Shown here in pieces: positions 43,901-46,900 of a DNA stretch of 64,000 nucleotides. The notes under the pieces are model-generated. The model did no database searches. It had not been told where the DNA came from and worked only from the letters and a program-made list of their open reading frames with translations. Numbering within the stretch: position 1 is the first letter of the stretch; each line of letters begins with the position of its first letter. Position numbers and translations under genes: made by a program. This DNA is from Lingula anatina. Taxonomy: Eukaryota; Animalia; Brachiopoda. The DNA lies in assembly GCA_051362555.1 (NCBI GenBank), contig CM120641.1:35780401-35844400 (forward strand). Direction: 5' to 3'.

Positions 43901-46900
43901 AACTCTGACACTACAAAGCCATAAGATAAGTACACAATACCTTTAAAATATTAGCCACAGAAAATAAATTTGGAAACTGTATTCCCATTTTTTAAATTTA
44001 TCAATGTTTGCTTCCATGATTCCACAATTTAAAAAAAGATAATGATGTGATTTGTGGAGAGAAAATCTGAAAATTGACAATGTTTGTGCAATTGTCCCAG
44101 AAAAGTTAAAAAACACGAAAAAAAAAAAAAAAAAAAAAAAACCTGTAATAATCCTACCTTTATCAGTCTGTTGTTGGCTTCCTGCACCATCATCTGCAGT
44201 TTGTTTTCAGTGATGGTGACAGCTTGGATGCAGGCTTGGATCACTGTAGGGTCAGGACGATAGTCTGCCTCAAACATCTCTCGGATCTCTTTACATCTAC
44301 AAAAAATGTTTATTGTCCAAGATTAGTCATTAATAATTTCATATTAGTCAATATTAAATATAATTTTGACAAAGTGATACATCTTTGTTGACACACATAT
44401 CATAAAATACAAGCTGTAAGAGAAAAAGAGAGGTTCTCCATTCAATCCTTACTAAGAAATGCTTTTCTTTACATTATTTTTCCAATCTTAATTGACCTTA
44501 TGTTCCCTTAGTATTTATTGTAATGAGGTGCATTGAGAATTTCACGGAATAGCCCACAAAAGAAATTTATTATTATCATCATGATGTAATTGTAATAAAG
44601 TCAAATTCAAAAACCATGCCATACATACTTTTCTGATGTGAAGTCACAGATAAGTTCCTGTAACCAAGCCTGGTAATTGTAACTTCTGTTCTGTTTGATG
44701 TACGCCCTTGGGTACTAAAAATGAATTTAAACAGAAATTACAGTTTAACATTTATTCTTTCAAGCTCAATCACATAAACTGAACTATGAAAGTGACTGTC
44801 AACTTACTTCTGAAGTTGTTTATAAGGTCATTACTTATCAATACAATATACAAAATATTTCTGCCAGAATTCCCCTTGAAAAACCTTGAGTCATATCTGT
44901 GAGCACTTGTCATAAAAGGGGGACTCAATCACCATATTGTTCTGTGCATCTACCCTTGTTATGTACAAAGCACTCTTTCTGGTGTATTATGTGGTACAGT
45001 ATGGGGAAAAAAATCTGATGTACTATGGTAGCAAGTGTATAGAGAAACCTGCCTGGTTTACTATGGTGGGATGTGTATGGAGAACCCAACCTGGTTTATT
45101 AGGGTGGTATGTGGACAGAGAACCCTACCTGGTTTATTATGGCATGTGTATAGAGAACCTTACCTGGTTTACTATGGTGGCATGTGCATAGCGAAACCTG
45201 CCTGGTTTATTATGGTGGTATGTGTATAGAGAACCCTATCTTCCTACCTGATGGACCTGGTTTATTATGGTGGTATGTGTATACAGAACCTTATCTGGTT
45301 TATTATGGCATGTGTGTAGAGAACCTTACCTGGTTTACTATGGTGACATGTATACAGAAAACCCTTCCTGGTTTATTAGAGTGGCACATGTACAGAGAGC
45401 CCCTGGTTTATTGTGGCATGTGTTTAGAGAACCTCACCTGGTTTACTATGGTGACATACAGAAAACCCTACTTGGTTTATTAGGGTGGTACATGTACAGA
45501 GAACCCCTGGTTTATTATGGCATGTGTGTGTGTGTAGAGAATCTTACCTGGTTTACTATGGTGACATGTATACAGAAAACCCTACCTGGTTTATTATGGC
45601 ATGTGTATAGAGAACTTTACCTGGTTTACTATGGTGACATGTATACAGAAAACCCTACCTGGTTTATTATGGCATGTGTATAGAGAACCTTACCTGGTTT
45701 ACTATGGTAGCATATGTATGGAGCACATCCAGACAACTGCCAATAACTGCTCTTCTCTGAAGTAACATGTTGGAAAGCTCTCCTTCCAGTTGTTCACACT
45801 GAAATCATAGAACATTTTATCATACAAATAAATGGAAGTATTATTGTATGTGGTAGATATATTTTGAATGCAGTAATAGTACGACCCTTCAAAATATAAA
45901 TAAAATAATAACCTCTCTTTAACATTTAATTTATATCTCAATTAATGTTCATGATTCAAAGTCTGGTTAATCATTCAAAATTATATTAAAAATATATAAT
46001 AAAAGGGTTTTTCGACTGATTAATTTTTAATCAATTGCTATCAGTTAGAAAACAACTTTACAGCAAAATTCACCATTAAAAAAGAAGCAACACACACACA
46101 CAGTAGAGATGTACAATTACCAATCAGGGCCATTAGCATTATTCATGACATTCTGTAACTGCTGCAGTTTATTGTTATTAAGATAATTGCTATAATGATC
46201 ATCACACATTAACCTTCCAAGATAGATCAATATGAACACCCAACTGTGAAGGAAAAGCTGTTTTTTTACAACATTTAAGCTATAACACAATGCCTTCAGA
46301 GGACTGTACCCTAGTAGTGCATAATATATCCTACAATTTACCAATCAAAGTACATACAACATTTCGATTATCTCATTATCACAGCTTTTCAATTACTTTA
46401 CTCTGTAAAATTCAGCCGAGATGAAAGGTCCCGGAGTCTGTATGCAGCAGATTGTTCCACCACAGCATGTTAGCACAGTATCAGCACCACCCACTGACAA
46501 GCTGTCAGACATTCGACTTACATTCATGCTGTCATGATTAAATGAAAGTTTAAGTAGTGCCTACGTCTCTTTAATACTCACACAATATTCATTCATGCAA
46601 TCTCTTAAGTTTCAAGTAGTTCTTTAAGAAGGATTAAGGGCAGCATATGAATAAGCTTGGAATAACTCTTCTTTGAATAAGCATTCAGAAAGCGTATCAA
46701 TATATTAAATTTAATATAGAACACAAAGTCTTGTAAAAAATGTTGTTCCACTGTCAAGGTGTCAGTTGTACCAGCCAGAACAATTTACATAATGCACAGC
46801 TGATCCATCACATTTGTCCAATAAACTTCCTGGAAACCTTCAAAATCACTTTCCATGTGTCTTTTAATTCTTCAAAACATAAGAGATGTCTCAATATTTT

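Follow-up and report, generated by a model that had tools for sequence, protein, structure and literature searches.

The window, a 64,000-nucleotide stretch of Lingula anatina DNA, contains the 3′ portion of SMG1, encoded on its minus strand (34966..62991). A model built from homology and splice signals gives 38 exons and a 1659-residue open frame running from the kinase to FATC, and Pfam matches both domains in this frame. Protein comparison of a 91-residue exon confirms, at the level of sequence, that the host gene is SMG1: named SMG1 proteins matched it at 62–71%, and human SMG1 reached an E value of 2e-32 against 8e-8 at best for TOR, ATM or ATR. Downstream of SMG1 lie an IL-17-receptor-like gene with Ig_ILCR1 and SEFIR domains (12949-17521, plus strand) and a fibrinogen C-terminal domain gene (19733-19116, minus strand). 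The 10,057-base intron of SMG1 houses an intronless rhodopsin-class GPCR frame, nested on the same strand (54711-53434, minus strand; 426 residues stop to stop; Pfam 7tm_1, E 8e-23).

One SMG1 exon ends at a donor that recurs in tandem throughout much of the following 979-base intron. As an earlier first-pass annotation of this DNA had proposed, the exon at 45798-45694 (ending ...YATIVNQ) is spliced in frame to the exon at 44714; the junction is present in RNA, and both ends of the upstream exon appear as RNA joints. Its residues agree with those of P0016 (Nematostella) at 21 of 35 positions, right up to the junction. More than 20 exon junctions had been expected downstream, and the SMG1 model has 22; RNA confirms just three, around the array. 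The features are as follows.

45694..45798, minus strand: SMG1 coding exon, 105 nt, phase 0, the 15th in the window; its final ~30 bases gave rise to the repeat unit
45686..45696, minus strand: authentic donor CAG|GTAAGG, with the exon end at 45694; 17 junction reads, in five of five RNA runs
45667..45669, minus strand: first in-frame stop, TAA, the ninth read-through codon, upstream of every copied donor
44979..45693, minus strand: minisatellite of 19 copies; unit of 34-41 bases, with one copy of 55 bases that carries an insertion
45123..45661, minus strand: ten strong pseudo-donors by PWM, none seen used in RNA
45236..45671, minus strand: part of the array rearranged or missing in other alleles, with joints in runs X3, X4, X9 and X13
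44715..44978, minus strand: unique 3′ part of the intron with the acceptor; 264 of the 979 bases
44629..44714, minus strand: next SMG1 exon, 86 nt, modelled and with RNA joints

The array is built from copies of the exon-intron boundary itself. Each unit joins about 30 bases of exon end to about 8 bases of intron. TRF placed the array at 45021-45723, with a period of 38 (18.6 copies, 65% matches) and a second period of 73 (9.3 copies). A 14-base exon-end motif, allowed up to two mismatches, matched 22 times in the window against 1.32 expected by chance, and 20 of these matches fall in 44979-45707 on the minus strand, representing the authentic site plus 19 copies. Motif count and TRF together confirm the earlier estimate of about 19 further 35/38-bp copies of the junction in the intron. 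Proximal units alternate between 35 and 38 bases as dimers, and the distal end has decayed. Unit 1 is identical to unit 15 and unit 2 to unit 4, while the last unit finds a best match of 58%. A homogenised interior flanked by decayed end units is the pattern of boundary-spanning minisatellites.

The repeat derives from the exon, rather than the exon from the repeat, because unit 17 agrees with the final 30 exon bases at 27 positions and the exon is old, as its likeness to Nematostella attests. Amplification within SMG1 is confined to this one donor, which has 14 near copies; a search with all 37 donors otherwise returned a single match at chance level. Two other origins were rejected. A repeat that inserted and replaced the exon end conflicts with the conservation of the exon up to the junction (P0016), and intron gain by duplication conflicts with the absence of the copied donor at the start of the next exon and with the unique 264-base 3′ part.

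Many of the copied donors are credible on paper, because ten reach the lower quartile of real donors. We scored them with a PWM built from SMG1's other GT donors and called strong those at or above the lower quartile of that set. The authentic donor scored 12.1, whereas the other GT donors of the gene have a median score of 9.0. Strong pseudo-donors have boundaries at 45659, 45621, 45586, 45548, 45472, 45438, 45330, 45248, 45164 and 45129, and the one at 45548 scored 12.6, higher than the authentic site. The 700 bases of the array thus carry ten such donors; the first 700 bases or less of each of the other 36 introns yield eight in total. CAG|GTR is kept in eight of the 19 copies, at exactly the eight boundaries that the first-pass annotation had named, and the two exact junction copies that it reported are those at 45330 and 45164, identical over -14..+12. 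It overlooked a ninth CAG|GTR, at 45248 within a 17-base insertion, and likewise CAA|GTAG at 45472.

Every copied donor lies behind a stop codon. Reading through the authentic donor leads to a stop nine codons in, as had been claimed, 27 bases into the intron and before all copies. A transcript spliced from any copy would end after 708 of the 1659 modelled residues and lose 951, including FATC. The broader statement that every alternative donor is 'poison' is true of all copies, but it describes no more than chance gives. Across 37 introns the first read-through stop falls at a median of codon 9, and by codon 9 in 19 of them; among cryptic donors in the other introns, seven of eight likewise give a premature stop. 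Poison status is therefore not special to the array, since both the timing of its stop and the fate of its donors are ordinary.

RNA reads place splicing mainly or only at the authentic site. Of nine raw-read RNA runs that share the species label, we used five, reading 6-26% of each and listing joints from 3 reads up. The authentic 45694-44714 junction is covered by 17 reads, spread over all five runs (X12 2, X15 2, X18 6, X13 1, X19 6), and no joint from any copied donor was listed in the five runs, in which NMD was not blocked. At this shallow depth the 17 joints set a 95% upper bound on copy use of about 16%. X18 and X19, with exon alleles diverged from the window and so perhaps with shorter arrays, supply twelve of them; the other five alone give a bound of 45%.

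Because joints are listed from 3 reads, read depth provides the finer test of copy use. RNA depth over 45565-45675 is zero in X12, X15, X18 and X13. X19 has zero depth over 44770-45640, and six loose ends at 45694 continue into the next exon; depth in its donor bin consists of 16 reads that cover exactly 14 exon bases, all 16 ending at 45694. The first-pass annotation had weighed its regulatory idea against the case that only the authentic junction is used, even under NMD block. With NMD active, this junction was the only one seen, and low-level copy use may be hidden by NMD. Unspliced sense-strand intron reads occur in X12 (about two, at 44899-45120) and X13 (four reads with two starts), where exon depth is 1-2. 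In X13 the upstream intron is covered by reads too (46564-46896). Intron reads are absent from X15, X18 and X19, and X18 and X19 are the deepest runs.

The splice signal is not preferentially kept among the copies. GT survives in 11 of 19 copies. Over all 37 pairs of adjacent bases in the unit the median is 14 of 19, and nine of these pairs are kept as poorly as GT or worse. Exon-derived TAAACCAG pairs are kept in 17-19 of 19 copies. The copies share a history and are not independent, so the count is descriptive; as such it goes against a regulatory reading and is one of the outcomes that the first-pass annotation itself had named as telling against its regulatory idea. Nor does the array show the conserved alternative splice signal that marks AS-NMD: GT is less kept, and the array is rearranged between individuals.

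Alleles of the array differ in unit content. Ten DNA runs contain the locus, and we compared three of them (X3, X4 and X9), in which no contig spans the array. All three carry rearranged alleles. A joint between 45238 and 45456 recurs in X3 DNA, X4 DNA and X13 RNA; splicing was rejected as its source in X13, since it lacks GT-AG ends and also occurs in X3 and X4 DNA, which identifies it as an allele. X9 DNA has a joint between 45235 and 45672, with zero depth over 45239-45372 and 45574-45640, and in this allele as aligned the first copied donor is a weak CAG|GTT. X3 DNA holds two haplotypes, one identical to the window (0 differences over 44828-45504) and one rearranged.

As aligned, the two kinds of allele are 194 and 416 bases shorter than the window, sizes that we do not take at face value because units 5-7 resemble units 8-10 and unit 1 equals unit 15, which makes placement within the repeat ambiguous. 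The first-pass annotation had suggested genotyping repeat number across individuals; the X3, X4 and X9 DNA carries alleles that vary, with exact sizes uncertain. Parts of the array were found in all three DNA runs, with flanks up to about 10% different from the window; the array is therefore not a one-off and predates their divergence. Polymorphism under the one species label is high across 44100-47200: contigs of the intron diverge by as much as about 10%, and X18 uniformly carries four changes in an 86-base exon. Runs under this one label may include distinct lineages.

The SMG1 array belongs with the boundary-spanning minisatellites of the F7 IVS7 type, also described as 'mirages'. In human F7 intron 7 a 37-bp VNTR begins with a unit that straddles the exon-intron boundary (Borensztajn et al. 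2006, PMC1557585). In F7 minigenes with 1-12 copies only the first donor was used and the choice stayed unchanged, and other donors functioned once the first was lost (PMC1557585). The two arrays share a boundary-spanning first unit, a near-identical unit length, length polymorphism and use of the upstream donor only. They differ in make-up: the F7 units number 5-9, are identical and include 4 exon bases each, whereas SMG1 has 20 diverged units with about 30 exon bases each and has lost GT in 8 of 19 copies. They also differ in evidence: the function of F7 copies was assayed in minigenes, and that of the SMG1 copies is judged from sequence and reads.

Human CBS intron 13, with 15-20 units, 6-16 intron 2, with 25 pseudo-sites, and the LMNB2 and PDGF arrays have the same architecture and similar copy number (PMC1557585). 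Copies are unused in LMNB2 and PDGF in this account, whereas CBS and 6-16 splice from the two closest copies as well (PMC1557585); in SMG1 none is seen in use at low depth. Lancelet 'mirage' minisatellites are known in Adh3, troponin C, the globins BflGb6 and BflGb9, and PGBD5 (PMC3087553, PMC3902484). They vary between haplotypes and leave splicing undisturbed (PMC3087553, PMC3902484). Like the SMG1 array, they repeat an exon-intron boundary of an animal gene in tandem, with the splice signal in many but not all units, number differences between haplotypes, end units outside homogenisation, and normal splicing; unlike them, the SMG1 array sits in a gene for an NMD factor. A literature search confined to the articles proper found no description of an SMG1 donor repeat.

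We consider it highly probable that the array is an allele-variable, boundary-spanning minisatellite whose first donor is used in the reads seen and which is neutral or nearly so. It likely began with a single short tandem duplication across the exon-intron boundary. Growth and shrinkage would then have proceeded through slippage or unequal exchange, a turnover suggested by the 35/38 dimers, the identical non-adjacent units and the decayed far end. The upstream donor is likely chosen since it closes the exon, as in human F7, and the copies would leave with the intron after splicing at this first donor. If a copy were used on rare occasions, the resulting mRNA would meet a premature stop, and NMD would remove it as noise in splicing. 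Exclusive use of the first donor has a precedent in the F7 minigenes (PMC1557585), and undisturbed splicing has one in the lancelet mirages (PMC3087553).

The first-pass annotation had offered a neutral slippage expansion ignored by the spliceosome as an equal alternative, and this idea gains support from the authentic-only joints, the loss of GT and the allele differences. Several observations weigh against it: RNA depth is low, NMD was active, and the ten strong donors include one that outscores the authentic site; CBS and 6-16 do splice from their two closest copies (PMC1557585); and X12 and X13 contain unspliced sense intron reads. Under the neutral reading the array is a further example of a known oddity, in which the choice of the first donor holds despite ten strong competitors in an essential gene. 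It is also a natural allelic series within one species, usable for studying donor choice and leak under NMD block. Wider importance would follow only if array length altered SMG1 output, which would make it a repeat polymorphism tuning mRNA surveillance.

Regulatory readings, taken together, are improbable. The first-pass annotation had proposed SMG1 autoregulation by copy-number-tunable unproductive splicing or by a U1 decoy, and neither the RNA joints nor GT retention bears it out. Tuned splicing, in which copies are used, PTC-containing mRNAs are degraded and array length sets SMG1 dose, is very unlikely. It can point to the density of strong pseudo-donors (ten in 700 bases, eight in the other 36 introns), to the stop that precedes every one of them, and to alleles that differ between individuals. 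Published parallels are the use of proximal copies in CBS and 6-16 (PMC1557585) and, in human cells, the regulation of SMG1 mRNA by NMD, SMG1 being one of the NMD factors whose mRNAs increase once NMD is weakened (PMC6680220). Against these stand the 17 authentic reads with no listed joint from a copy, the absence of preferential GT retention, the weak CAG|GTT as first copied donor of the X9 allele as aligned, and F7, where copy number was without effect (PMC1557585).

Feedback arguments also tell against tuned splicing. Use of a copy in SMG1 would create an NMD substrate. The feedback on NMD factors, however, has been attributed to uORFs and long 3′ UTRs in full-length mRNAs (PMC6680220), and AS-NMD loops to proteins that regulate their own splicing (PMC6680220, PMC5437625); for the SMG1 array, either basis would be hypothetical. 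NMD strength alters the fate of the truncated mRNA only, not the amount of full-length message, and splicing-based loops require a product that controls splice choice. SMG1 is a kinase and is not known to regulate splicing. Since the truncated product would lack FATC, weaker NMD would spare it without restoring full-length SMG1, and no negative loop would close.

The array might also set the dosage of the NMD kinase, alleles with more strong proximal donors leaking more SMG1 mRNA into stop-containing or intron-retained forms. This is very unlikely. Were it true, individuals would differ in NMD capacity, and falling NMD would stabilise a kinase without FATC that could lower NMD further, a positive loop rather than a negative one.

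The chance is similarly slim that the extra donors engage U1 and slow intron removal, causing retention. The model for such an effect is SF3B1 intron 4, where decoy exons leave about half of transcripts intron-retained (PMC6097662, PMC7373989), and the SMG1 array resembles it in carrying, within an intron, additional splice sites able in principle to compete with the intron ends. Unspliced intron reads in X12 (about 2) and X13 (4), where exon depth is 1-2, would fit retention, and units end in CAG, giving AG..GT pseudo-exons on paper. Yet X15, X18 and X19 lack intron reads at the depth sampled, in contrast to SF3B1 for X18 and X19, the two deepest runs; the X13 reads extend to the upstream intron at 46564-46896; and 16 of 16 X19 reads at the donor end at 45694. 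The CAGs of the units also have no pyrimidine tract before them in the sequence. Human tandem repeats can influence splicing quantitatively (PMC10078293), and drug-induced retention of SMG1 introns reduces NMD (PMC12857400); these reports leave a small door for a regulatory effect.

A polyadenylation cassette, with AATAAA beside U1 sites and U1 gating premature cleavage of SMG1 RNA, is highly improbable. AATAAA occurs in 11 copies within 44979-45693, through a G>A change in the exon's AGTAAA, and the 715 bases of the array hold 11 AATAAA and 9 TGTA, against 1.4 AATAAA per kb in other introns. These AATAAA, however, represent one mutation amplified rather than 11 events, and CAG|GTR is kept in 3 of the 11 copies that carry them against 5 of the 8 others (p 0.18). 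No read extends out of the exon into the array, and depth in X18 is flat across the intron (7.7, 7.7, 7.8, 6.9). Depth in X19 falls from about 14 to 8 across the intron, at least partly through downstream halves left as loose ends. Recursive splicing at the CAG|GT sites of the units was set aside, given a 979-base intron and no pyrimidine tracts.

An assembly artefact is barely conceivable: mis-assembly is frequent in tandem arrays, but the units have diverged (65% matches) and the X3 DNA contigs, identical to the window over 44828-45504, largely refute it, while X1 and X2, which contain 0.96 of the words, are possibly the window's own source and hence not independent.

Several other elements of the window deserve mention. 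The SMG1 model requires a GC donor at 37985 on the minus strand (AAG|GCATGT), which predicts a GC-AG intron; six bases further on, a weak GT would preserve the same phase. A 146-bp tandem repeat occupies 5949-6806 (5.9 copies, 90% matches), with related sequence to about 7500. Immediately upstream of the SMG1 acceptor at 47115, a short dispersed repeat (47137-47187) is matched in both orientations by RNA reads that stem from other loci, hundreds in number and with shared loose ends; it resembles the terminus of a small mobile element.
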